Assembly (NCBI GenBank): GCA_021734025.1
Contig: JAIPJS010000005.1
Span: forward strand, 2,112-66,111
DNA length: 64,000 nt
From: Fidelibacterota bacterium
GTDB lineage: Bacteria > Fidelibacterota > JAANXI01
Direction: 5' to 3'
Numbering within the stretch: the stretch's first letter is position 1; the number at the start of each line of letters is the position of its first letter. The translations under genes were made by a program, and so were the position numbers. The notes below the pieces were generated by a model, which was not told the origin of the DNA, ran no database searches, and saw only the letters and a list, made by a program, of their open reading frames with translations. Below are positions 24,377-36,228 of the stretch, piece by piece.

Positions 24377-26104
24377 ATGCCTCTTCCAAATCTCACACTC
24401 ACGAATTTTACCGGGGAAGTATCGTCAACTATCGTTGATAGAGGGCAGGACTATTTTTATCGCGATCTGGTAACTTCGCTTGAGGAATCGCTGGATGGTC
24501 AGTGGGTGGCGCAGGTCAGGGGTACCGCAACATATACCGTCGAAATATCACTTTCCAATGATGTGGTGGCGTCCTGGGCGTGCACCTGTCCTTATGATTA
24601 TGGACCAGTGTGCAAGCACGTGGTTGCAGTATTGATGGAGTTGAAGGAGGGGAAATCTGCGAAAGCCGATCCGGAGCAGAAAAAGCGGTCTACCAGAAAA
24701 TCACCGGAAAGGCGGTTTGATTCACTGGTCGACGACCTGCCGGTGGACGCGCTCCGGAAATTCCTCCGCGATTACGCGCAGTTTCATCCGGAGATGGAAC
24801 GGGAATTCCTGGCAAAATTTACCACTGCGGACGTCCCCGACGCCTGGCGGGATTACGTCGCCGTGATCCGGGAATCGGCGCGGGCAGGCTCCGACCGCCA
24901 TGGATTTATTAAATATTCGAACAGCTTCCGGGTTATGCAGCCGATCCATACGATGATTCAGCAGGCATACGAAAAATTGGAGTCCGCGGAATATCACGCC
25001 GCCTGGCACATCGCCCGCGCCGTAGTGCAGGAAGTGCCGAAACTCATCCAGCGGATGGATGATTCCAGTGGTGACGGCGGTTTTGTGACGAACAACGCCC
25101 TGGAGATCCTCCGGGAAGCCGGCACTGCCACCGAAGATGATGACTTACAGTCGGAGATTTTTCAGTTTTTGCTGAAAGAGTATCCAAAACAGCAGTATTC
25201 CGATTTTGGATTTGATGAGACTATCCTGTCTGTCCTGACAGCACTGATCAGGAATCCCCGGCAGGCTAAGCAGGTGGAGCGGCTCATCAAAGCACAGCTG
25301 GAAGCGGCGGAAAATGCGGAAGATGACTTTGGCTTCGATTACCGGTTTCAGCGAGCGCTGAAACATCAGATCGAATTCCTGGAGCAGACCGGCCGGGAGG
25401 ACGAAGCCGCCGATATTATCGATGCGCATCTGGACATCGAGGAGTTCCGGGAGCGGCGGATTCAGGAAGCATTTGATCAAGAGGATTTCGACACGGCAAA
25501 ATCACTGGTACGGGATGGGATTAAACTTATACGGGAGCAAAAGTATCCGCCTGGATACGAATATCGCTGGGAACAGTGGCTGTTCCGGATTGCCAAAGCG
25601 GAAGAGGACACGGAGAACATTCGTCAATATGCACGGTTCTTTTTCCTCCATCGACGGCAGGATATCTCCTGGTATAAGGAGCTCAGATCGACCTATACCG
25701 ATCAGGAATGGCGCCCAATTCTGGCGGATCTGATTGAGGAGATCCGTTCGAAATCATACTTCCCGGCCCGGGCGCTGGCGGAGGTCTATGCGTATGAACA
25801 TCACTGGGATGATTTGCTGCAATTGTTATCGGAGAACCCGGACCTTTCTCTGCTGAAGGAGTACGGCACTTATCTCAGGGAAGATTTTCCCGAAGACCTC
25901 CTCGCAATATACGGGGAGACCCTGCGCGCCTTTGCGGCGGAGTATACGGGGCGCAAGTATTACCGGGAGATTGTCAGGACGCTGAACAACATCCGGGACA
26001 TCTCCGGTGGCGCCGATTTCGTGCGGAACCTGGTGGCGGAATTCCGGGAAACCTATAATCGCCGCCCGGCGATGCAGGAGGAATTGGATAAGGTAAAGGC
26101 ATAG
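24377..26104 (+). CDS. SWIM zinc-finger domain protein
   Basis: WACTCPYDYGPVCKHVVAVL is the CxC...CxH SWIM signature. The remaining 500 aa is helical-repeat-like. Confidence 0.65.
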   Translation: MPLPNLTLTNFTGEVSSTIVDRGQDYFYRDLVTSLEESLDGQWVAQVRGTATYTVEISLSNDVVASWACTCPYDYGPVCKHVVAVLMELKEGKSAKADPEQKKRSTRKSPERRFDSLVDDLPVDALRKFLRDYAQFHPEMEREFLAKFTTADVPDAWRDYVAVIRESARAGSDRHGFIKYSNSFRVMQPIHTMIQQAYEKLESAEYHAAWHIARAVVQEVPKLIQRMDDSSGDGGFVTNNALEILREAGTATEDDDLQSEIFQFLLKEYPKQQYSDFGFDETILSVLTALIRNPRQAKQVERLIKAQLEAAENAEDDFGFDYRFQRALKHQIEFLEQTGREDEAADIIDAHLDIEEFRERRIQEAFDQEDFDTAKSLVRDGIKLIREQKYPPGYEYRWEQWLFRIAKAEEDTENIRQYARFFFLHRRQDISWYKELRSTYTDQEWRPILADLIEEIRSKSYFPARALAEVYAYEHHWDDLLQLLSENPDLSLLKEYGTYLREDFPEDLLAIYGETLRAFAAEYTGRKYYREIVRTLNNIRDISGGADFVRNLVAEFRETYNRRPAMQEELDKVKA

Positions 26105-26354: not shown

Positions 26355-26786
26355 GCAGCCGGATTTTTGCAGCACTTTTTCTAAAAAAGTGCGGAGAAAA
26401 AGAAATTTATCTTCCGATACAGGTTCGGATTTATAAAAAAGGTTAATCTGTTGTACGGTTATGCAATCACATTAATTTAGTTTTAAGCATCCCCGTTTTG
26501 TCTTGATACAAAACGGGGTAAAAAATCAAGGCTGCCACTACAATTTCGGTATCGGCACCCATTCCCTCCGGGCCAGAACCAGAACTCCCTGCGGTCAGAC
26601 AGCTGGTTCTGGCTGTCCTATGGTCATGGGCCGATAGAGCAAAATTGTAGTGGAGGCCGGAGTAAAAAACAACGGTGGCCAAAATTGAAAACGATGCCAA
26701 AACTAAAAAGTGAAGAGAAGCGTTGGTTTTATCGGTCTCGCCACTCCTTTGGTACGAACTACTGGTGCGATGAGGACAGGATAATA
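26355..26786. repeat. modular structured repeat, locus B (one complete unit, forward orientation)
   Basis: Module order is the gcagcac hairpin, then gttgtac..cacatc, the CTTGAT hairpin at 26491-26518 (perfect 11-bp stem), aaaaaatcaaggctgccac, the ccagaaccagaact..cagctggttctgg hairpin, caaaattgtagtggaggccgg, and gatgaggacaggataat. Confidence 0.7.
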
Positions 26787-27296
26787 TTAATGGCTCCAAT
26801 TCTTTTTAAGATTTTCAAACGCATGCAGCAGTTTTTCATTTCTGCGATAGTATAAATTGTGTTCGAAGACCTGTTCTAACTTTACAATGGCTTCATCTGT
26901 CGTTAGGGTGTTTTCCATTACCATCCGATCAAAAGCCCACAACAACCCATGTGTCTTTATCTTGTGCTTTCTTCCCATTTTACGCAAAACGCCATCGCTG
27001 GTTAGCAGCAATGCACTTTCCTTTTTAGCAAGAAACCAAACTGAGCGGTCGGCAATCGAAAGGGACATGGACAGGTTGAAGGGATCCGTTTCGTCAATAA
27101 AGTTCTCTTCGATTTCAACAATAGTGAGTTTTTCTTTTTCTACCCATGTGGATAAAAATTCACGTTGGTCTTGATCTAACTCCATCCACACCTGATATGA
27201 GGTAATAATATTATGGGGTAATTGGAAAAAGGCATTACAAGCATCGCACAGCAGCAAATCGATAAATATCGAAGCATCTGTGACGGCTAATTTCAT
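26787..27296 (-). CDS. DUF4411-like PIN-fold protein, the usual partner of an ImmA/IrrE metallopeptidase
   Basis: MKLAVTDASIFIDLL... N-terminus. It has a 1-nt gap or overlap with the upstream HTH-ImmA gene. The pairing is recognised from gene context. Confidence 0.5.
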   Translation of the reverse strand: MKLAVTDASIFIDLLLCDACNAFFQLPHNIITSYQVWMELDQDQREFLSTWVEKEKLTIVEIEENFIDETDPFNLSMSLSIADRSVWFLAKKESALLLTSDGVLRKMGRKHKIKTHGLLWAFDRMVMENTLTTDEAIVKLEQVFEHNLYYRRNEKLLHAFENLKKNWSH

Positions 27297-28352
27297 CTAT
27301 CCCAGGAGGAAGTTGTGACGGAATTCGTTTATCGGCTGATTCTTCAGTGCTGCGGCCTTCGAAATAGAGATATACTCCTCTGCCAGCGCCTGGCCGATTA
27401 ACTGATCGAATCGGAGAGCCTGTTCCTCTCCGGTGTATTCTGCCAGATCGGACTCATCCTGTCTCAGGTTATTGCTGTTGATAAATTTGTAAAAATCCCG
27501 GTAAGCCCCTTCACTCATAATCTCCAATTCCTTCAGCCGGGTCGCGATGGCTTGTATCGAGATCCCGTACTGTCGTTTCAGTGAAGCAAGTTCCTGTAAA
27601 GAAACTTTCTTCCGCTTTAAACCGAGTTCTGCTTCAACTGCCCGCTTATCCAGCAGCATCGCACCGGCAAAATGATGGCAAAGACTTTCCTGCTTCCGGT
27701 GATTCATGTGGTTAATATTCAAAAGGAGATGTCCGAGCTCGTGCATCGCATTGAACCGGTAGCGGTCAAGTGAACCTTTTTTCTCTTTATTCAGAACGAT
27801 AACCGGGACAGAGTTGTTAATCCAGGAAGAAAAACCATCGATCGAATCGTCGCCACTCAATTCGATTATTTTGATACCCCGATCTTCCAGCAATTCCAGA
27901 ACATTGTAGAGGGGATCGATGCCGAGATTCCATTGATCCCTCAATTGCTGCGCTGCGTTTTCGACATCCTTTTTATTGGTAATATTTTGTTCTTGTAGTG
28001 GATTTTTTACATGTGGCTGGGTACCGAGAATTTTTTCCAGCTCAAGATAGCGTTCCAGGAAATCACGTGCGGTTTCCACAATTCGGTTCTGTTCTTTTTT
28101 CTGGAGCCTTGACAGTTTTCTAAACGAAATCTCCTCGATTTCTACCGCATGATCCCGATAAAAGTAATCCGGTTTCAAATCCAAAGCATCTGCGATGTTT
28201 TGGATCATCACGTTGCCCGGTACGACCTGCCCTTTTTCATACTTGTGCAGCGCCTGCCTGCTGATTCTATTGTCGAGACGATCAGACAAGTCCTGCAACG
28301 AAAATCCCCGCATAAGACGCGCATGTTTTAAACGCTGTGCAAGTTGTGGCAT
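27297..28352 (-). CDS. XRE-family HTH fused to ImmA/IrrE (COG2856) zinc metallopeptidase domain
   Basis: N-terminal HTH (LKHARLMRGFSLQDLSDRLDNRISRQALHKYEKG). HEXXH motif HELGHLLLN within a DUF955-like region. Confidence 0.75.
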   Translation of the reverse strand: MPQLAQRLKHARLMRGFSLQDLSDRLDNRISRQALHKYEKGQVVPGNVMIQNIADALDLKPDYFYRDHAVEIEEISFRKLSRLQKKEQNRIVETARDFLERYLELEKILGTQPHVKNPLQEQNITNKKDVENAAQQLRDQWNLGIDPLYNVLELLEDRGIKIIELSGDDSIDGFSSWINNSVPVIVLNKEKKGSLDRYRFNAMHELGHLLLNINHMNHRKQESLCHHFAGAMLLDKRAVEAELGLKRKKVSLQELASLKRQYGISIQAIATRLKELEIMSEGAYRDFYKFINSNNLRQDESDLAEYTGEEQALRFDQLIGQALAEEYISISKAAALKNQPINEFRHNFLLG

Positions 28353-28438: not shown

Positions 28439-28612
28439 ATGGCGACAAATGGCAAGTCCGGCGATAACCGTCGGCATGGTGCCGTTCGCAACCGCTCCCA
28501 GATTAAAAATCCGGTAAACGGCTTGTACATTAAACGCAACAGAAAAACCGGCCGGTTTATGGACGTGAAAACCAGCGGTGGCAGATTTAAAGGCGTCCGC
28601 CGGGAGAAGTGA
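28439..28612 (+). CDS. small highly basic protein (57 aa), divergent from the XRE/ImmA gene
   Basis: Near-consensus RBS AAGGAGGTGA 7 nt upstream of the ATG. MATNGKSGDNRRHGAVRNRSQIKNPVNGLYIKRNRKTGRFMDVKTSGGRFKGVRREK. It is not in the ORF track because it is under 60 aa. Confidence 0.4.
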   Translation: MATNGKSGDNRRHGAVRNRSQIKNPVNGLYIKRNRKTGRFMDVKTSGGRFKGVRREK

Positions 28613-28689
28613 GCGATGCGAGTCAAAAAGACCTTGACAGGTGTCCGGGACCCTGCCAGGGTCTATCGGCATCAATCATTCCAATTTGA

Positions 28690-29465
28690 CTTTATTCCCC
28701 CTTTTGCCTTGATGCAAAAGGGGGCGAAAAAATCAAGGCTGCCACTACAATTTCGGTATCGGCACCCATTCCCTCCGGGCCAGAACCAGAACTCGGTCAT
28801 TGCATTCTCTCAAACAGATAATACTGGCTTTACGTCGGACGTTGGCCGACAGAGCGAAATTAATTTGAAGGCCAAGTTCCAAAAGCACGAGAGTCGGTTT
28901 TTCGGTCTCGCCATGCTTGAGCCCCAGTTCCGGCGTCTACCTTTCGACAAGCTCAGCTCCGGAAGGAGCCTCTTCCGAGGGATGACGCCTCTAGGAGTCA
29001 CTCTGAGCCTGTCGAAGAGTGGCAAACTCTTTGTCTATCGAATGTGAGGAATTTCCCAAATTGGAGTGAAAGATAAATTCATGAATTATTCAGGTTAGGT
29101 TTTCATAAAAACGTTTATCGATTGTATCGGGAAGCAATTATATCAATTTGACTTTATTACCCGTTTTGTCTTGATACAAAACGGGTAGAAAAAATCAAGG
29201 CTGCCACGACAATTTCGGTATCGGCACCCATTCCCTCCGGGCCAGAACCAGAACTCCCTTCGGTCAGACAGCTGGTTCTGACGATCCTCCAGTCATGGGC
29301 CGATAAAGCAAAATTGTAGTGGAGGCCGGATGAACAAAACAGTATACAATCTGAAAAATATCAGTAGTACACAAAATTGAAAGCGAGGCCAATACCTTAA
29401 AGCAAAGGGAATAATACTGTAGTTTATCTGTTGTACTTCAGTCACATCTTGGTAATATTACACCC
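28690..29465. repeat. modular structured repeat, locus C (two partial units, forward orientation)
   Basis: CTTGAT hairpins at 28696-28724 (stem cccccttttgc/gcaaaaggggg) and 29160-29185 (stem cccgttttgt/acaaaacggg). Each is followed by aaaaaatcaaggctgccac..cggtatcggcacccattccctccgggccagaaccagaact. The locus ends with ctgtagtttatctgttgtacttcagtcacatc. Confidence 0.7.
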
Positions 29466-29529: not shown

Positions 29530-29952
29530 ATGACCGACGTTCACGAGCCGGAAGTCCGCAGTTACAATATGAGCCGGATTCGGGGTAAGGATACTAAACC
29601 CGAAATGCTGGTTCGGAAGTTTTTGCATTCCTACGGTTTTCGTTACCGGTTACACGTGAACAATTTGCCTGGAAAACCGGATCTGGTTTTACCAAAATAT
29701 AACACCGCGATATTTGTTCACGGCTGCTTCTGGCATGCGCACGAAGGATGTGAGTACTTCAAAATTCCGCAAACCCGAACGGAATTTTGGAAAGAAAAAT
29801 TATTCGGTAACAGAGAAAGGGACGAGGAAAACATTTCTGAACTCCGGAAAATGGAGTGGAACGTTATCGTGGTTTGGGAGTGTGAGTTAAAATCAGAGGA
29901 AAAGGAAGTGAAACTTCAGGAAATTGCAAATAAGGTTGAAGAAAATAAATGA
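29530..29952 (+). CDS. vsr: very-short-patch repair endonuclease
   Basis: MSRIRGKDTKPE...FVHGCFWHAH.GC...TEFW..K...N..RD...L...GW.V..VWECE are classic Vsr motifs. Confidence 0.85.
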   Translation: MTDVHEPEVRSYNMSRIRGKDTKPEMLVRKFLHSYGFRYRLHVNNLPGKPDLVLPKYNTAIFVHGCFWHAHEGCEYFKIPQTRTEFWKEKLFGNRERDEENISELRKMEWNVIVVWECELKSEEKEVKLQEIANKVEENK

Positions 29953-30386
29953 GCATACCTGTTATTGACATTTTTGCCGGCCCTGGAGGCTTAGGAGAAG
30001 GATTTAGTTCCGTTATGAATGAAGAGGGAGAACGGTTTTTTAATACAGTCCTCTCTATTGAAATGGATGAGTATGCTCACGAAACGTTAGAGTTACGAAG
30101 TTTTTTCCGCCAGTTTGCGCCCGGCAAGGCTCCTGAAGAGTATTACAAGTTTTTACGGCAGGAAATCGATAAAGAAGAATTATTTAAGTCTTGGCCTGAG
30201 CAGGAAGAAAAAGCAAAAAATGAAGCTTGGAATATCAAGCTTGGATTTGATGAAAGTTCAGTAACCCCAGATGAAGTCGATCGAAGGATAAGGGTTGCAT
30301 TAAACAATGAAAAAAAATGGGTTTTGATCGGTGGCCCTCGTTGCCAAGAAAAGCCTATGCCGACTCTCAATGGCCAAAATCTGTGA
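29949..30386 (+). pseudogene. remnant of a DNA (cytosine-5)-methyltransferase (motifs I-IV only)
   Basis: Motif I FAGPGGLGEGF. Motif IV is degenerate (GGPRCQ instead of GGPPCQ) and is followed by unrelated residues, with a stop after 145 aa. No downstream frame continues an MTase. It overlaps the vsr stop (ATGA). The intact paralogous dcm starts 450 bp further on. Confidence 0.6.
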
Positions 30387-30835
30387 TTTTGTTCCTATTG
30401 AGTTATCGGTAAAACTCGCTACACTCAGAAAATCTTTAAAAAGTTATTAGTTCTGAGTCTGATTTTTATTATCATATTAAGGAGACTTTCGAAGGGTTTT
30501 CTCAAATAATTGTATCGATCAAAATTCGAATTGTGCCCAGTGGTGATGAAATTTGTCGCTGGATCGATGATAACCTGAATTCGGCAAAGATTCCAAGAGA
30601 AGTAATACTCGAGGATATAGGTGATGGACTCAATTCCTTTGGCGTACACTTTAAAAACTATGACCCCAAAGCCAGGTTCGCCGATAAAGAAAAAGTGAAG
30701 AGGTTGTCGAGGTTGGTGTAGGAGGGATGATGAGAAACCATATACTATCCTGAAAATTCTTATTTTATAAATGACTAAGTTTGTTCATTTTAGAGAAAGT
30801 TAAACAACTAATTTATTTCAGAATAGCTTAAATTA

Positions 30836-32041
30836 ATGAAATACATAGATTTATTTGCGGGTGCCGGCGGTCTTTCTGAAGGTTTTTACAGGGAAGGATT
30901 TGAAGCTGTGGCTCATATTGAAAAAGATCACCATGCTTGCCAGACTATTAAAACCCGGACTGCCTTTCATTATTTAAAGCAGGAAAATCATATCTCTGAA
31001 TATATTCGTTATCTGAACCAAGAAATAACAAGAGAAGAATTCTATGATTTAATACCTGATGAAATACTTGATACGGTAATTGACGCTGAAATATCGGAAG
31101 AGACCTTAGAAGACCTTTTCAATTTAATTGACCAGAAGCTTGAGGATGAAGAACTTGATTTAATAATTGGTGGCCCTCCTTGCCAGGCATACTCTAGTGC
31201 CTCCGCTTATATTGAAGAAAAAAACGAAAAATTAATTTATTTATATGAATTATATGGTGAATTCCTTGATCACTTTACTCCAAAGATGTTCATCTTTGAA
31301 AATGTACCTGGAATTTATACGGCAGATGAAGGAAAATATTATGAAGGGCTGAAAGAATGCTTTAAAAATGCGGGCTATGAATTTGAAGATAAAAAATTGG
31401 ATGCTTCTGAATTTAACGTACCACAGAAGAGAGAACGGGTAATCATAATTGGTTGGAGAGAAAACTTAGATTTATCATATCCTGAATTTGAAAAGAAAAT
31501 ACCCGATACAAAGATTGACGAATTATTTAATGATTTACCAGACCTTGAACCAGGCAAGTCTTACGATCCGGGAAATCACTACACACAAGGAGGATCTGAG
31601 TATGTTAATACCTATATCCGAAACGGAATAGATGTATTGACACACCACATTGCCCGCCCTCATAATGAAAGAGATTTGAATATTTACAGAATGGCTATAG
31701 AAAGATGGGAAGGAGGTGCGAGGTTAAAGAATTCAGATATTCCTGAAGAGATGAGAACTCAAAAAAATATCTCATCTTTTTTGGATCGTTTTAAAGTAGT
31801 TGATGGTGAAGGTTTTTCTCATACTATGATAGCTCATATCGCCAAAGATGGTCATTACTACATTCATCCGGATCAGAAGCAATTACGCTCTATTTCAGTT
31901 AGGGAAGCGGCCAGAATTCAGTCTTTTCCAGACGATTACTTTTTTGAAGGACCTCGAACTTCTGTATTTACTCAAATTGGCAATGCTGTGCCACCAATTC
32001 TTGCACAAGAAATAGCACGCAAAATAAAAAGGGTCCTTTGA
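30836..32041 (+). CDS. dcm: DNA (cytosine-5)-methyltransferase
   Basis: Motif I DLFAGAGGLSEGF, motif IV GGPPCQAYSSAS, motif VI ENVPG, and motif X QIGNAVPPILAQ. Confidence 0.85.
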   Translation: MKYIDLFAGAGGLSEGFYREGFEAVAHIEKDHHACQTIKTRTAFHYLKQENHISEYIRYLNQEITREEFYDLIPDEILDTVIDAEISEETLEDLFNLIDQKLEDEELDLIIGGPPCQAYSSASAYIEEKNEKLIYLYELYGEFLDHFTPKMFIFENVPGIYTADEGKYYEGLKECFKNAGYEFEDKKLDASEFNVPQKRERVIIIGWRENLDLSYPEFEKKIPDTKIDELFNDLPDLEPGKSYDPGNHYTQGGSEYVNTYIRNGIDVLTHHIARPHNERDLNIYRMAIERWEGGARLKNSDIPEEMRTQKNISSFLDRFKVVDGEGFSHTMIAHIAKDGHYYIHPDQKQLRSISVREAARIQSFPDDYFFEGPRTSVFTQIGNAVPPILAQEIARKIKRVL

Positions 32042-34401
32042 TGACTAATTATAAAGAGATATCAACTTATTCTTTTACTCCAGGGGCAATGTCAATTATT
32101 CAGATGGGCGAAGAACTCATTGGGCAACCCAATACTGCTATTAATGAATTAGTAAAAAACGCCTATGATGCCGACGCAAAGAATTGCGAAGTTTATTTTC
32201 ACAGTGCTGAATCAAAAGAATCATCCTTTACTCTAATTTTTGATGATGGAAATGGGATGGATGAGTCTATTCTATTTGGTGATTGGCTTAAGCCTTCTGT
32301 AAGTGATAAACGAAAGGAGGGGGTTAAAAGTCCTGTATATGGAAGAAATTTATTGGGTAGTAAAGGAATTGGCAGACTTGCTTCTATGGCCCTGGGCAGG
32401 CTTGTTACTGTTATTTCAAGACAAAATCCTTCGGATGATTATAACTGGATAACAGTAGACAGGGAATTATTTAAGGAGGAAGCTTTACTTAAGGATATCA
32501 AATTTCCAGGCTCAAGCATTGAGAACTACCTAGATTTATTTAGAGATGAGGAGTTACTAGAAATTAGAAACTCTTATGAAAATGATGAGCTTTTTGAGGT
32601 TCTGAAAAAAAATGACCTTGATCATTTTGAGAAAGGCACATTAATATTGATTGAGGAGTTTGATGAAGCGGTAGTTAAAATTCTCAGGAAAGATTTTCTC
32701 GAAAGTAACGAGAAATTAAATGAGCACTCTCTGAAGAGTACCAATTTCTATAAGTCTTTAGCCACACTTATTACTCCGATAACTTTAAGTTCGGAAATCC
32801 AGGATGAATTATTAGAAAGAGAAATAATTGATGCGAAGAAAATCATTGCATCAAAAGATGATTCATTTGAAATAAGTTTTGGAATCAATTTGCTCCCTGA
32901 TCAGGAAAAATCTGAAATAGAATGGCAGGATATAGACCCAATTCCAATACTTGATGTTTTTGATTACAGGGTCTTTGGTAAAGTTACTGGCGAAGGTGAT
33001 GTTGATGGATATCTTGGCTTCAACAGACTTGAAAAAGATGGCCATGAAATAACTTTTTCAATTTCTCGGAATGAAATTAAAGATAAAAGCTTACGCGGTA
33101 AGGATCAGCCGACATTATTTGATAATGAAAGTGATTCTGAAAATGAAATGGAGACAGGCGAATATTACTTTGACTTCCGAGTATATGATATGGGAGAATC
33201 TGATAATCGGGCAAAACTATCTGAAAAAGCTGGGTTCGAAAATATAAATACCTTTAGAAGTACTTTTAAAGAATTTCAAGGGCTTAGGGTTTCAAAAAAT
33301 GGATTTGGTGTAAAGCCATATGGGGAAGAGGTCGAAGACTGGATAGGTTTATCTAAAGCGAGAGTTCAGAATCCAGGTCAAAATGTTAATACCAATCAGA
33401 TTATTGGTTATGTCTTTTTCTATTCCCCGGAAAATGATCAGATTGAAGAAAAGACTAACAGAGAAGGTTTTCTTGAAAACACAGCTTTCATTCAGGTTAA
33501 GGAAACTTTAAAAGTTATTTTCAAAAACCTAGGACGTAAAAGGTATAACTATCGATTAAAGCATGGTCTTGGCAGGGTGCCTTCCAGTAAACATAAAAGA
33601 CCTAACATAGATAAGTTTCTAAAGTCTATTGAATCCAGTAAAAATGTAGATCAGGCCAGAAAAAAATCAGAAAAATTTGTCAAAGAGATTACGACTTCTT
33701 TGGATAATTTAGAAGAGGCATTAACATTTTCAGAACGATTAGCATCTCTTGGTAGCGGAATAGAACTGGTGTATCATGAGATGGTACAGCCTATTTCAAC
33801 TTTGAGAACTACGAAATCTTCCTTAGATCTAAAGAAAGAGAAAATTGCTGAGGCGGTTAAAGAGATCTTCCTCAACGATATAAATTCATTGAATAGTGCA
33901 ACTGATGTATTAGCAGAGTTAAGAAATTCTCTTCAACCTGCAATAGGGAGAACAAGAACTAAAAAATTCAAACCTGTTGATACCTTTTTGCGGGTATGCA
34001 CCTTATTTAAAACGGATTTTGAGGATGCAGAAATTAGTATAAATCTTATTGGAGAAACTGAAAATTTTACTCTGAAAGATTATGAATACCCCTTCTGGAT
34101 AGCTTTCCTGAATATTTTAAATAATGCCGTTTATTGGATAAAAAGGTCGGAGGAACCAGGAACTATTTATTTTCAAATAGACAATGGAAACATAATAGTA
34201 GGTAATACAGGACCGCTTATATCAGAAGATATTATAGAAGATATTTTTGAATATGGTGTCACAACCAGAAAAGAGAAAAATGCAACCGGATTAGGCCTTT
34301 CTTACACGCAAAGTATTCTCAGTAAAAATGATTGGGACATAACAGCTGAGAATCGAAAAAATGGACCGGTATTTATAATAAAAAAGCAAGAAAGTGAATA
34401 A
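32038..34401 (+). CDS. fusion protein: N-terminal MORC/Hsp90/MutL-like GHKL ATPase domain, about 380 aa of unknown middle region, C-terminal histidine-kinase core (HisKA H-box plus HATPase_c)
   Basis: N-terminal N-box ELVKNAYDADA, G1 FDDGNGM, G2 GSKGIGRLAS. C-terminal H-box ELVYHEMVQPISTL, N-box FLNILNNAVYW, G1 QIDNGN, F IFEYGVT, G2 GLGLSYTQSIL. The start overlaps the dcm stop (ATGA). Confidence 0.6.
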   Translation: MMTNYKEISTYSFTPGAMSIIQMGEELIGQPNTAINELVKNAYDADAKNCEVYFHSAESKESSFTLIFDDGNGMDESILFGDWLKPSVSDKRKEGVKSPVYGRNLLGSKGIGRLASMALGRLVTVISRQNPSDDYNWITVDRELFKEEALLKDIKFPGSSIENYLDLFRDEELLEIRNSYENDELFEVLKKNDLDHFEKGTLILIEEFDEAVVKILRKDFLESNEKLNEHSLKSTNFYKSLATLITPITLSSEIQDELLEREIIDAKKIIASKDDSFEISFGINLLPDQEKSEIEWQDIDPIPILDVFDYRVFGKVTGEGDVDGYLGFNRLEKDGHEITFSISRNEIKDKSLRGKDQPTLFDNESDSENEMETGEYYFDFRVYDMGESDNRAKLSEKAGFENINTFRSTFKEFQGLRVSKNGFGVKPYGEEVEDWIGLSKARVQNPGQNVNTNQIIGYVFFYSPENDQIEEKTNREGFLENTAFIQVKETLKVIFKNLGRKRYNYRLKHGLGRVPSSKHKRPNIDKFLKSIESSKNVDQARKKSEKFVKEITTSLDNLEEALTFSERLASLGSGIELVYHEMVQPISTLRTTKSSLDLKKEKIAEAVKEIFLNDINSLNSATDVLAELRNSLQPAIGRTRTKKFKPVDTFLRVCTLFKTDFEDAEISINLIGETENFTLKDYEYPFWIAFLNILNNAVYWIKRSEEPGTIYFQIDNGNIIVGNTGPLISEDIIEDIFEYGVTTRKEKNATGLGLSYTQSILSKNDWDITAENRKNGPVFIIKKQESE

Positions 34402-35521
34402 TTTGGGTACAATAATTCATTTAGACAACGATGAAAAAATTCTTCAAGATTTTAAAGGGCTATTCGATCAGTCCGGTATTAATCTTGATTTAGTCACTTG
34501 CCAAACAAAAGATGAATTTTATAAGCTTATTGAAGAGCATAAAAATTCTCTAAAGGCATTGGTCTTTGACTTATTAAGTTCTGAGCCCGGTAAAGAAGAA
34601 CTACACAAAGGTGATGCAGAATTTCTGGACTCTGTAGAGGATAGTTTTTCTACGGTTAGTATTCCTATTTTCATTTACAGCGGGTTTTTAGAAGCTATTG
34701 AGGAACAATTTGAAACCCATGGAACTGTGTTTAAAATTGATAAAGCAAATGGGCCAGACGAAATACTCAGGCTGATCAAGCTTTTTGATGAATCTGGATT
34801 TTTAGACGTATTTAGCCCGGGTGGAAAAATTGAAAAAGATTTTCATAATGAATTAAATAAATCTTTTATATCTCAATTCACAAATAACAAGCAAATAGAA
34901 GAAATAATTAACACTGTTGCTGAAGAGGATGTCAAAGAATCTAAAGAAAGGGTTGAAAAGGTCTTTAAGAGAATTGCCTTAAGGTCACTTTTAACCGTGC
35001 TTCAGTTATCAGAAAATGAAGGAGATGAGGAATACCTTAATCCGGTTGAGCACTATGTGAAAAGAATTAATGATCAAAAGATTGTAACTGGAGATATCTT
35101 TTTTAGCCAAGAAAAAAACGAGCATTTATTAGTAATGACACCCAGATGTGACCTTGCTAATAAAGATCCTCAAGAAATTTTAGTATGTAATATTGATACA
35201 GAAAAATTTCCAGATAAGACGACAAGTAACACTCAGAAAGGTAAAATTCTTAATGCTATTACTGATAATCCTGAATATTCAGGTTATGACAGATACTTAG
35301 TTAGGTCCCCTTTTTTTGTTGGCGGCTTAATAAAAATTGGATCTTATTCAATGATAGCAAAGGAAGAATTACTGTCTAGTTACGATCTTCAGATAACATT
35401 AAGTGATGAACTTACAAATGAAATACTGGGTAAATTTGGATCTTATTTTTTCCGTACTGGAATTACAACATGGGATCTTGACGAAACTGTAAAATTCATA
35501 GAGTCGATAAAGGAAGATTAA
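34394..35521 (+). CDS. receiver (REC) domain protein with about 250-aa C-terminal domain of unknown function
   Basis: GTG start overlapping the kinase stop. IIHLDNDE (beta1 acidic pair), ALVFDLL (putative phospho-acceptor Asp near residue 59), IPIFIYSG (Ser/Thr position), and VFKIDK (Lys position) match a CheY-like spacing. I recognised nothing in the C-terminal region. Confidence 0.5.
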   Translation: MNNLGTIIHLDNDEKILQDFKGLFDQSGINLDLVTCQTKDEFYKLIEEHKNSLKALVFDLLSSEPGKEELHKGDAEFLDSVEDSFSTVSIPIFIYSGFLEAIEEQFETHGTVFKIDKANGPDEILRLIKLFDESGFLDVFSPGGKIEKDFHNELNKSFISQFTNNKQIEEIINTVAEEDVKESKERVEKVFKRIALRSLLTVLQLSENEGDEEYLNPVEHYVKRINDQKIVTGDIFFSQEKNEHLLVMTPRCDLANKDPQEILVCNIDTEKFPDKTTSNTQKGKILNAITDNPEYSGYDRYLVRSPFFVGGLIKIGSYSMIAKEELLSSYDLQITLSDELTNEILGKFGSYFFRTGITTWDLDETVKFIESIKED

Positions 35522-35523
35522 AA

Positions 35524-36228
35524 TTGACCTTCAAAAACTGGCTCATATCTACTGGACGAAAACCAATTTCAGCAAAGAAATATGAAAGTGCCGTATACGG
35601 ATCAATTTCTGGTTGGGCAGAAGAGGCTGGAATAGTAAAGTCAAACCTAATTGATGTCAATGATCCTGAAGAGTTTGAATCACTTTCCAATAGGATTAAA
35701 GAACTTGAGATTTTTCTGGAAAGAAATACTGATGGACATCAGATGTACAGCGCTGCATTAAACAGGTACTCAGAATACCTGATAGCTATCCAAAATGAAA
35801 TTGAAGAGGATATAGACAAAGTATCAAATGATGATTCTGTTTCTGAAACTGAAAAAGACAGTCTTATTAAATCCCGTCTGGGTCAGGGCGTTTTCAGAAA
35901 AAGTCTGATGGATTACTGGCAGAGATGTGCAGTAACCGGCTATCAATCCTCTAAATTATTAGTCGCTTCACACATTAAACCATGGAGAAGTTCCGATAAC
36001 AAAGAGCGTATGGATGTGTTCAACGGCCTGTTATTGATTCCAAATCTTGATAAAGCTTTTGATAAAGGCTTCATATCTTTCAAAAAGAATGGTAGCATTA
36101 TAATTTCAGAGTTTTTCCAAAAACCGGCTTCATTGGGAATAAAATCTGATTTAAATCTTAAGATTTCTAATAGGCACCAACCATATCTTGAATACCACCG
36201 TGATATAGTATTTCTGCAAGCTAATTAA
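35524..36228 (+). CDS. HNH endonuclease (HNH_2-type) with N-terminal domain of unknown function
   Basis: TTG start 2 nt after the REC gene stop. C-terminal CAVTGYQSSKLLVASHIKPW...NGLLLIPNLDKAFDKGFISF is the HNH_2 signature. Confidence 0.65.
   Translation: MTFKNWLISTGRKPISAKKYESAVYGSISGWAEEAGIVKSNLIDVNDPEEFESLSNRIKELEIFLERNTDGHQMYSAALNRYSEYLIAIQNEIEEDIDKVSNDDSVSETEKDSLIKSRLGQGVFRKSLMDYWQRCAVTGYQSSKLLVASHIKPWRSSDNKERMDVFNGLLLIPNLDKAFDKGFISFKKNGSIIISEFFQKPASLGIKSDLNLKISNRHQPYLEYHRDIVFLQAN

Follow-up and report, generated by a model that had tools for sequence, protein, structure and literature searches.

Histidine-kinase-like (HK-like) proteins that combine two GHKL-type ATPase domains were described in 2021, when 174 of 222 sequences, called 'group 1', were found to carry HATPase_c_3, HEF_HK (PF19191) and HATPase_c (Bellieny-Rabelo, Pretorius & Moleleki 2021, Genome Biol Evol, PMC8011034). 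The proteins are soluble, 91.6% of them are linked to proteins resembling response regulators ('RR-like') of the family Response_reg_2 (PF19192), and C5 methylases lie upstream with HNH_2 and Vsr genes nearby, including in Chryseobacterium, Flavobacterium and Hymenobacter (PMC8011034). In the same study, which was computational only, the HK-like proteins were proposed to descend from the paraMORC ATPases that Iyer et al. reported in 2008 (PMC8011034). Genes for these ATPases are part of restriction-modification operons (Iyer, Abhiman & Aravind 2008, PMC2292703), and paraMORC1 was described with an uncharacterised C-terminal extension and a linkage to HNH genes, a likeness that is only suggestive here (PMC2292703). 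We have analysed a gene of this kind in a stretch of 64,000 nucleotides from a Fidelibacterota bacterium (GenBank assembly GCA_021734025.1, contig JAIPJS010000005.1, positions 2,112 to 66,111 of the forward strand), referred to below as the window. The gene, at 32038-34401, encodes a protein of 787 residues. Our reading, to which we give a probability of roughly 0.55, is that it is the kinase subunit of a defence module that is linked to a methylase, resembles a two-component system and was gained by horizontal transfer; the module would belong to the HEF_HK/Response_reg_2 or paraMORC-kinase family, and a MORC-like half would act as the sensor.

The described system with the same gene layout is Ambrosia, a validated anti-phage system of Pseudomonas aeruginosa reported in a 2025 preprint (bioRxiv 10.1101/2025.09.30.679545). 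It consists of an XRE regulator, an N6A methylase, an HATPase/sensor kinase, a receiver (REC) protein and a type IV HNH nuclease (bioRxiv 10.1101/2025.09.30.679545). Defence needs every gene as well as the receiver aspartate D60, and phage is not protected by pre-methylation with the Ambrosia methylase; the authors' hidden Markov model (HMM) thresholds for AbrB, AbrC and AbrD were 500, 150 and 200 bits, respectively (bioRxiv 10.1101/2025.09.30.679545).

The protein in the window had been the subject of a preliminary description, which claimed two GHKL-type ATPase domains in one polypeptide, the first MORC/Hsp90-like and the second the catalytic domain of a histidine kinase. The features of the gene are as follows.

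32038-34401, + strand: double-GHKL kinase open reading frame (ORF), 787 residues, the sole ORF there in the ORF listing
32128-32484, + strand: N-terminal Bergerat-fold ATP-binding domain, residues 31-149, HATPase_c_3
32485-33567, + strand: middle region, residues about 150-510, transducer (S5-like) domain and helical inserts
33679-33957, + strand: dimerization and histidine phosphotransfer (DHp) helices, H-box ELVYHEMxQPI, predicted phospho-acceptor H580 (codon 33775-33777)
33985-34398, + strand: C-terminal catalytic and ATP-binding (CA) Bergerat-fold domain, HATPase_c, N box N692/N696

A TTG codon at 32038 is directly followed by an ATG at 32041, and the start is probably this ATG, which overlaps the stop codon of the upstream methylase gene, dcm.

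Both ATPase domains were recovered above the curated cut-offs of Pfam, HATPase_c_3 on residues 31-149 (E 8e-20, 71.7 bits against a cut-off of 25) and HATPase_c on residues 689-781 (E 5.3e-10, 40.2 bits against 26.4). The claim of two GHKL domains in one protein thus stands, and the N-terminal motifs, for which the preliminary description had left the decision to profile searches, score clearly as a GHKL domain. Conservation was assessed in two alignments, one of 42 kinase relatives with 48-90% identity (A2) and one of 60 relatives with 20-26% identity (A6). The N, G1 and G2 motifs that had been quoted for the N-terminal half are present and invariant in both: E37, N41 and D44 (within ELVKNxYDADA), D69, G71, G73, G107, K109, G110 and G112 are 100% conserved in A2 and A6, and K40 likewise in A6. 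In domains of this type E37 is the catalytic base, N41 binds magnesium, D69 binds adenine, and G107-x-K-G-x-G112 is the lid motif. Comparison with NCBIfam aligned residues 32-132 with the N-termini of the BbrUII/HgiDII restriction enzymes, MutL and MzaB, and a sequence search of the PDB gave MORC2 as a weak direct match of the N-terminal domain, the similarity being marginal (E 0.016).

A strongly conserved motif of the family, (R/K)xGF(R/G)VxPYG...DW...RVQxP...NQxxG...(K/S)NREG, runs through the middle region; a family-specific form of it is RxSKNGFGVKPYG...DW...RVQ.P...N.NQ..G...KTNREG. D434 and R475 of this region are invariant across the wider family as well. We suspect that the basic residue 420 may have the gamma-phosphate-sensing role of the transducer lysine. 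A structure of residues 1-545 was predicted with AlphaFold2 (AF2) from the 42-sequence alignment, with a mean predicted local distance difference test (pLDDT) of 78.7 and a predicted template modelling score (pTM) of 0.78. When the model was compared with the PDB by Foldseek, it matched two-domain ATPase modules over about 500-545 columns with E values from 1e-14 to 1e-9. The matches were SMCHD1 (6mw7, E 1e-14), MORC2 (9cdh/5of9) and MORC3 (5ix2/6o1e), and further Hsp90, GRP94 and the LN40 fragment of MutL (1nhh/1b63), so that the likeness to MORC and Hsp90 suggested earlier is borne out by the predicted structure. Judged by this model, the N-terminal half is a GHKL plus transducer module of the MORC/SMCHD1/Hsp90/MutL type (a 'GHL' engine) with its catalytic glutamate intact. 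The window protein shares with paraMORC/MORC proteins and SMCHD1 a GHKL domain with intact motifs followed by an S5-type transducer, the latter in the window being predicted from the model, and with paraMORC and prokaryotic MORC genes a linkage to Dcm, Vsr and HNH genes. Unlike the window protein, none of the described MORC/paraMORC families is defined by a fused DHp and CA core and a cognate receiver.

The C-terminal boxes, which had been described as an independent set, were also found. H580, N692, N696, G725, G751 and G753 are 100% conserved in A2 and A6, and the H-box H580-E581-x-x-Q-P and the N, G1, F and G2 (ATGLGL) boxes are invariant or nearly so in A2 (n=42). The G1 box is the variant N723-x-G725-P726, the F box contains F737, and the G2 box is A749-T-G-L-G-L754. 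Histidine-kinase models of NCBIfam align from about residue 524-553 onward, and residues from about 548 to 780 align to the DHp and CA cores of AtoS, ChvG, CreC and ZraS, with AtoS as the best match (E 4.9e-13). The closest solved sequence is the CA domain of the histidine kinase 3a0t (E 1e-5). Pfam HisKA was not matched by the kinase. The protein is without a transmembrane segment (maximum Kyte-Doolittle mean over 19 residues 0.94). In its sequence the C-terminal third is a normal DHp and CA histidine-kinase core.

Residue 723 (codon 34204-34206) is N in 42 of 42 members of the window clade and D in 91% of the wider family, where the box reads D-x-G-P-G. The second glycine of G1 and the first glycine of G2 are likewise substituted in the window clade. 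We do not read the G1 change as the mark of a dead kinase because 3a0t carries the same N-S-G-P in the printed alignment.

The same substitutions, N for D in G1 and A for G at the start of G2, would also be expected if the 787-residue protein were a type II-like restriction subunit, similar to BbrUII/HgiDII, with a degenerate pseudo-kinase tail. The best NCBIfam match is indeed the BbrUII/HgiDII family (E 2.3e-16), REase_II models of PADLOC match the N-terminus, and minimal loci of the family contain no other nuclease candidate. The two groups of proteins are related in their N-terminal HATPase_c_3 domain and both work with C5 methylases. However, the match to the BbrUII/HgiDII model (NF050001) covers residues 32-132 only, about 100 residues, with 59.5 bits against a cut-off of 550, and the BbrUII/HgiDII enzymes have neither the kinase core nor the receiver partner. 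No nuclease domain was found in the 787 residues by Pfam or NCBIfam, a solved kinase CA domain (3a0t) has the same G1 variant, and an invariant H580 and N box together with the invariant D59, S/T and lysine of the partner are hard to explain without phosphotransfer. We therefore regard a restriction subunit of this kind as improbable.

The partner is encoded directly downstream, by a gene that had been overlooked in the earlier account.

34394-35521, + strand: cognate receiver protein, 375 residues, its start overlapping the kinase stop by 8 nucleotides
34394-34798, + strand: REC domain, residues 1-135, acidic pair D11/D13, S96, K117
35006-35518, + strand: putative output domain at the C-terminus of the receiver protein, residues about 205-375, predicted beta-rich barrel and helices

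The receiver protein gave no match in Pfam, NCBIfam or PADLOC, and its public name is solely 'hypothetical protein'. It is 100% identical to an NCBI entry from Marinimicrobia, and the host is a metagenome-assembled genome of that group. The predicted phospho-acceptor is D59 (codon 34568-34570). F58-D59-L60, P91 and K117 are invariant in 48 receiver relatives, in which D11/D13 and S96 are conserved, and D59 does not vary among 68 partners drawn from all phyla. The canonical Response_reg family was matched by 28 of these 68 partners (best E 7.9e-11), and Response_reg_2 by three at E<=0.01. An AF2 model with a pLDDT of 84 consists of an N-terminal receiver fold, a helical region and a beta-rich C-terminal domain, and Foldseek matched it to the receiver domains of 3jte (TM 0.73), FixJ, RcsB and PorX. 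In 78 of 82 loci the kinase is immediately followed by an ORF of about 355-460 residues, and 150 homologues of the receiver protein were found on the same contigs as kinase homologues. Given the gene overlap, the linkage in 78 of 82 loci, the Response_reg matches and the receiver fold, the 375-residue protein is the cognate response-regulator-like partner of the kinase.

The output domain has conserved motifs of its own, Y221, WTG233D234I, T-P-R-C252-D253 and R354-x-G356. Across the 68 partners G233 and C252 are 92% conserved, D253 83% and R354 88%. Foldseek gave two weak matches of the domain to the MazF/PemK fold, 5co7_D (TM 0.71, E 5e-3) and a PemK-like entry of BFVD (E 9e-3), and the modelled domain may serve as a lead towards a MazF/PemK-like fold. 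Homology to MazF had no support from sequence: a profile search of the PDB with alignment A3 was negative and hhalign against Escherichia coli MazF (NC_000913) gave a probability of 0.5%.

Kinase and receiver lie within a block of about 6.8 kb, from 29.5 to 36.3 kb, with a GC content of 33-37% as compared with about 50% in the flanks and the genome. The other genes of this island are listed here.

29530-29952, + strand: vsr, first gene of the island (Pfam Vsr E 1.5e-32; PADLOC Vsr E 1.6e-37)
29949-30386, + strand: remnant of another C5 DNA methylase, truncated (Pfam DNA_methylase residues 5-50 only, E 2.3e-4)
30836-32041, + strand: dcm, complete C5 cytosine DNA methyltransferase, 401 residues (Pfam DNA_methylase E 6.6e-59)
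35524-36228, + strand: HNH_2 endonuclease, last gene of the island, 234 residues, starting 3 nucleotides after the receiver gene

Vsr is the very-short-patch repair endonuclease, which repairs T:G mismatches arising from deamination of 5-methylcytosine (5mC). The dcm gene is also matched by TIGR00675 (E 1.5e-50) and, in PADLOC, by a DrmMII-like model (E 2e-158) and type II methyltransferase models, and the HNH_2 gene by Pfam HNH_2 (E 5.8e-13) and PADLOC HNH (E 5.4e-28). Since the genes from dcm to HNH_2 overlap or lie 3 nucleotides apart, they form one operon from dcm onward. The methylase remnant keeps motif I (FAGPGG), reaches GGPRCQ and then ends; it is probably a pseudogene, and no long ORF follows it at 30387-30835. 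Its position between vsr and the intact dcm suggests that an earlier methylase was replaced or has decayed. The island was most likely acquired horizontally. No tRNA or Rfam RNA was found at its borders, promoter-like sites at the island were no commoner than in shuffled sequence, and none of the nine terminator-like sites (4.5 expected) marks an operon boundary.

The preliminary description had called the double-ATPase architecture unusual, which did not hold. It was published in 2021, and we found more than 500 close full-length homologues of the kinase in Bacteroidota and Balneolota, so many that neither a chance ORF nor a fusion made in assembly can explain the gene. A species scan, with one genome per species, gave at least 564 species loci with kinase homologues, 1,312 clusters (50% identity) reached E<=1e-30 when a profile was run against 1.84 billion representatives, and homologues occur on 87 plasmids, 41 of them in full length. 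Most of these are conjugative plasmids of Campylobacter, which carry the triad sensor histidine kinase, response regulator and dcm. Full-length matches at 22-27% identity were found in Actinobacteria, Firmicutes, Proteobacteria, Verrucomicrobia, Chloroflexi, Acidobacteria and Archaea, and the patchy distribution looks like horizontal transfer.

The neighbourhood of the relatives was compared with that of the window. Of 79 genome loci, 55 have a Dcm homologue no more than 4 kb away, in 37 cases as the immediate neighbour, and 18 have Vsr. The Pedobacter steynii locus has the order Vsr-Dcm-kinase-receiver, two metagenome contigs (L002 and L003) have Dcm-kinase-receiver-HNH_2-Vsr, and HNH_2 is found in the same position in L002-L007. 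In a sister subfamily (L064, L072, L086 and L087) the order is N6_N4 methylase-kinase-receiver, with the N6_N4 methylase instead of Dcm, and its loci sit in defence islands with AbiJ, DUF1156, ApeA-HEPN, ThsB-TIR and MmeI. From the presence of the genes across related loci, the conserved core is the methylase, the kinase and the receiver, with HNH_2 and Vsr as accessories.

In locus L087 an XRE gene with a helix-turn-helix (HTH) domain stands beside the receiver gene, as in Ambrosia. Some relatives of the kinase are extended at the N-terminus. In a distant relative from the flavobacterium Gangjinia marincola (L062, 7566-10172) an EcoRII-N domain, a B3-like DNA-binding domain, precedes the GHKL domain (50.2 bits, E 3.2e-13), and a weaker match of the same kind was seen in L056. 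P0079, P0058 and about 20 close relatives (905-937 residues; 57-60% identity) have an extra N-terminal domain of 125-150 residues that is missing in the window protein, and this domain showed no similarity to Pfam, the PDB or EcoRII-N. Another relative with an extra N-terminal domain is encoded in L002 (8001-10739).

The distribution also bears on whether the genes are an ordinary housekeeping cytoplasmic two-component system that happens to lie beside a restriction-modification cassette, its N-terminal GHKL domain sensing nucleoside triphosphate (NTP) levels. NTP sensing was raised as a possibility in the 2021 study (PMC8011034), and the public names of the proteins are solely 'sensor histidine kinase' or 'ATP-binding protein'. 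Yet the linkage to a methylase holds across phyla, plasmids and defence islands, the genes lie in a low-GC island and have a patchy, transfer-like distribution, and the N-terminal module resembles the DNA-acting ATPases MORC, SMCHD1 and MutL. A housekeeping system is for these reasons very improbable.

The double-GHKL architecture, the receiver partner and the restriction-modification context are thus already in the literature, and the window protein agrees with the HEF_HK family in its HATPase_c_3 domain, DHp His-Glu pair, HATPase_c domain and solubility. Alike are also the adjoining receiver protein without any other known domain, the upstream C5 methylase, and HNH_2 and Vsr nearby. The transducer domain and the conserved C-terminal domain of the receiver protein are not described in that study (PMC8011034). 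Ambrosia and the window, which were compared by published description, share the order methylase, HATPase/kinase, REC and HNH, and the phospho-accepting aspartate of the receiver is D60 in Ambrosia and D59 in the window.

Several observations count against our assignment of the gene to a defence module of this family. PF19191 (HEF_HK) matched one of the 42 clade members, with an E value of 0.06, and did not match the window protein, and PF19192 (Response_reg_2) matched none of the 48 clade partners at E<=1. The structural models are predictions with pLDDT values of 79-84, and sequence searches found no nuclease or toxin signature in the receiver protein's C-terminal domain. An HNH gene of the window type occurs in only 5 of 79 genome loci and is thus absent from most relatives. 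In Ambrosia the methylase is of the N6-adenine type, a HipB-like XRE regulator is present and Vsr is absent, whereas the window has a C5 Dcm and Vsr and no adjacent XRE gene, and a homology search from a Pseudomonadales relative listed no P. aeruginosa proteins. Finally, the authors of the Ambrosia study favour transcriptional induction over direct activation of an effector (bioRxiv 10.1101/2025.09.30.679545).

With regard to the family models, the window clade differs from the HEF_HK family in being missed by PF19191 and PF19192 and in its G1 box N-x-G-P. Among the 60 distant full-length relatives, four matched HEF_HK (best E 1.8e-6) and two matched HisKA, and none of ten proteobacterial relatives scanned for PF19191 was positive. 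An HMM of the window clade detected full-length homology in the distant loci, with E values from 1e-36 to 1e-79. This homology, the shared invariant residues and the identical context place the proteins in the same superfamily. We take the results to mean that the PF19191 and PF19192 models are narrow and that the window protein, as far as its sequence tells, would be a divergent member of that superfamily.

The preference of the Ambrosia authors leads to a further explanation, according to which kinase and receiver only regulate expression of the methylase and HNH genes upon stress or infection, with the receiver protein binding DNA and having no enzymatic output. Reporters at the methylase and HNH positions of Ambrosia were induced on infection and AbrC is said to have a winged-helix domain (bioRxiv 10.1101/2025.09.30.679545), and control of restriction-modification was speculated upon in the 2021 paper (PMC8011034). 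In the Foldseek comparison of the receiver protein with full-length FixJ, RcsB and ARR1 the alignments span 205-225 columns, into the helical region 136-205, with root-mean-square deviations of 7-15 Å. On the other hand, the genes in the window are tightly packed into one transcription unit, so that the nuclease could hardly be controlled separately, and in many methylase-kinase-receiver loci (Pedobacter, the Campylobacter plasmids, L086 and L087 among them) a nuclease that could be regulated is missing. Moreover, Pfam finds no HTH family in the receiver protein, and its most conserved residues outside the REC domain (G233-D234, T-P-x-C252-D253, R354) lie in the beta-rich domain and not in an HTH. 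Purely transcriptional control is in our view unlikely, though it deserves to be taken seriously.

A cytoplasmic histidine kinase reportedly also serves defence in Detocs, which is said to have been described by Rousset et al. in Cell in 2023: the kinase senses infection, phosphorylates a receiver-effector and so triggers defence. In that system, reportedly, the sensor is of the TPR type, an additional receiver serves as a buffer, and the effector is a PNP acting as an ATP-nucleosidase. Detocs is said to have neither a methylase nor an N-terminal GHKL module, and its likeness to the window beyond generic kinase and receiver domains would not be one of homology. A PADLOC scan of the window gave no Detocs match. 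Other candidates were set aside. The sole kinase in the preprint on the methylation-associated defence system (MADS) is a genomic landmark, so that system is unrelated. In the DefensePredictor paper HATPase and REC appear only in the figure legend of unvalidated predictions, which gave no link to the window, and the GHKL and cREC topics of a jumbo-phage review are unrelated. A PADLOC match to 'PDC-M43B' covers residues 653-775 of the CA domain only, and no literature on it was found.

In the mechanism that we propose for the kinase as part of a defence module, the N-terminal GHKL and transducer module would be an ATP-driven dimerising clamp of the MORC/SMCHD1/MutL type, placed where a kinase usually has its sensor domain. 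The clamp would report the state of the DNA, that is foreign or unmethylated DNA, or infection. Its cycle of ATP binding and hydrolysis would control the DHp and CA kinase and lead to autophosphorylation of H580, from which the phosphate would pass to D59 of the receiver, the product of the gene that overlaps the kinase gene downstream. The phosphorylated receiver would then switch on an output, either its own C-terminal domain or the co-transcribed HNH_2 nuclease and expression of the operon. Dcm would mark the DNA of the host, and Vsr would repair the mutational cost of 5mC. The module may serve defence in this organism.

The preliminary description had also proposed that the N-terminal ATPase acts as a DNA-sensing clamp that feeds the kinase. 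We find this plausible. It fits with the invariant E37, the methylase, Vsr and HNH context, the fusion to EcoRII-N in a relative and the adjoining receiver. More tentatively, and as a rather unlikely extension, the triad of methylase, kinase and receiver might be a self-contained restriction or abortive-infection machine gated by a phosphorelay. The clamp would read methylation directly, and His-Asp transfer would free a hitherto unrecognised effector, the receiver protein's C-terminal GDI/TPxCD domain with its MazF/PemK-like barrel, which would act as a toxin or nuclease.

Some features of the window lie outside the island, to its left. A two-gene cassette at 26787-28352 on the - strand has a GC content of 44-45%. 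One gene encodes a 351-residue fusion of HTH_3 (E 1.8e-11) and IrrE/Peptidase_M78 (E 5.7e-10), 1.2 kb upstream of the island and on the opposite strand, which is the only HTH_3 protein nearby; the other encodes 169 residues without a family match. The pair looks like a regulator of the ImmA/IrrE type and its partner. The + strand at 24377-26104 encodes a protein of 575 residues in which an N-terminal SWIM zinc finger (E 7e-6) is the sole domain recognised.

Three copies of a structured repeat, about 190-230 nucleotides long, are present on the + strand, where none is expected by chance.

26400-26660, + strand: first copy, core 26520-26560
28607-28867, + strand: second copy, core 28727-28767
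29069-29329, + strand: third copy, core 29189-29229

These copies flank the HTH-IrrE cassette on both sides, immediately to the left of the low-GC island. Within the repeat a hairpin keeps its pairing by compensatory changes from copy to copy. There is also a second hairpin (CCAGAACCAG...CTGGTTCTGG), and a long-range stem closes the structure. Folded as RNA, the repeat has an energy of -67.7 kcal/mol (z = -4.4), and no Rfam family matches.

The copy in the window adds no new kind of system, and Ambrosia, with the same layout, has already been validated experimentally. What is added here is a divergent clade missed by the Pfam models, a structure-based assignment of the N-terminal half and a conserved, putative output domain of the receiver protein. 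The family to which the kinase is assigned is large, spreads across many phyla, archaea and conjugative plasmids, and is poorly understood and understudied. Beside a DNA methylase it brings together an ATP clamp of the MORC/MutL type and phosphotransfer from His to Asp, two mechanisms on which work usually proceeds separately. If the receiver protein's C-terminal domain is an effector, it would be a new class of receiver output domain and would represent a new restriction-modification logic without transcriptional control. If the relay gates restriction or abortive infection, it would be a distinct coupling of epigenetic self-marking to inducible immunity, and the family would provide a bacterial model for signalling by MORC-type ATPases.

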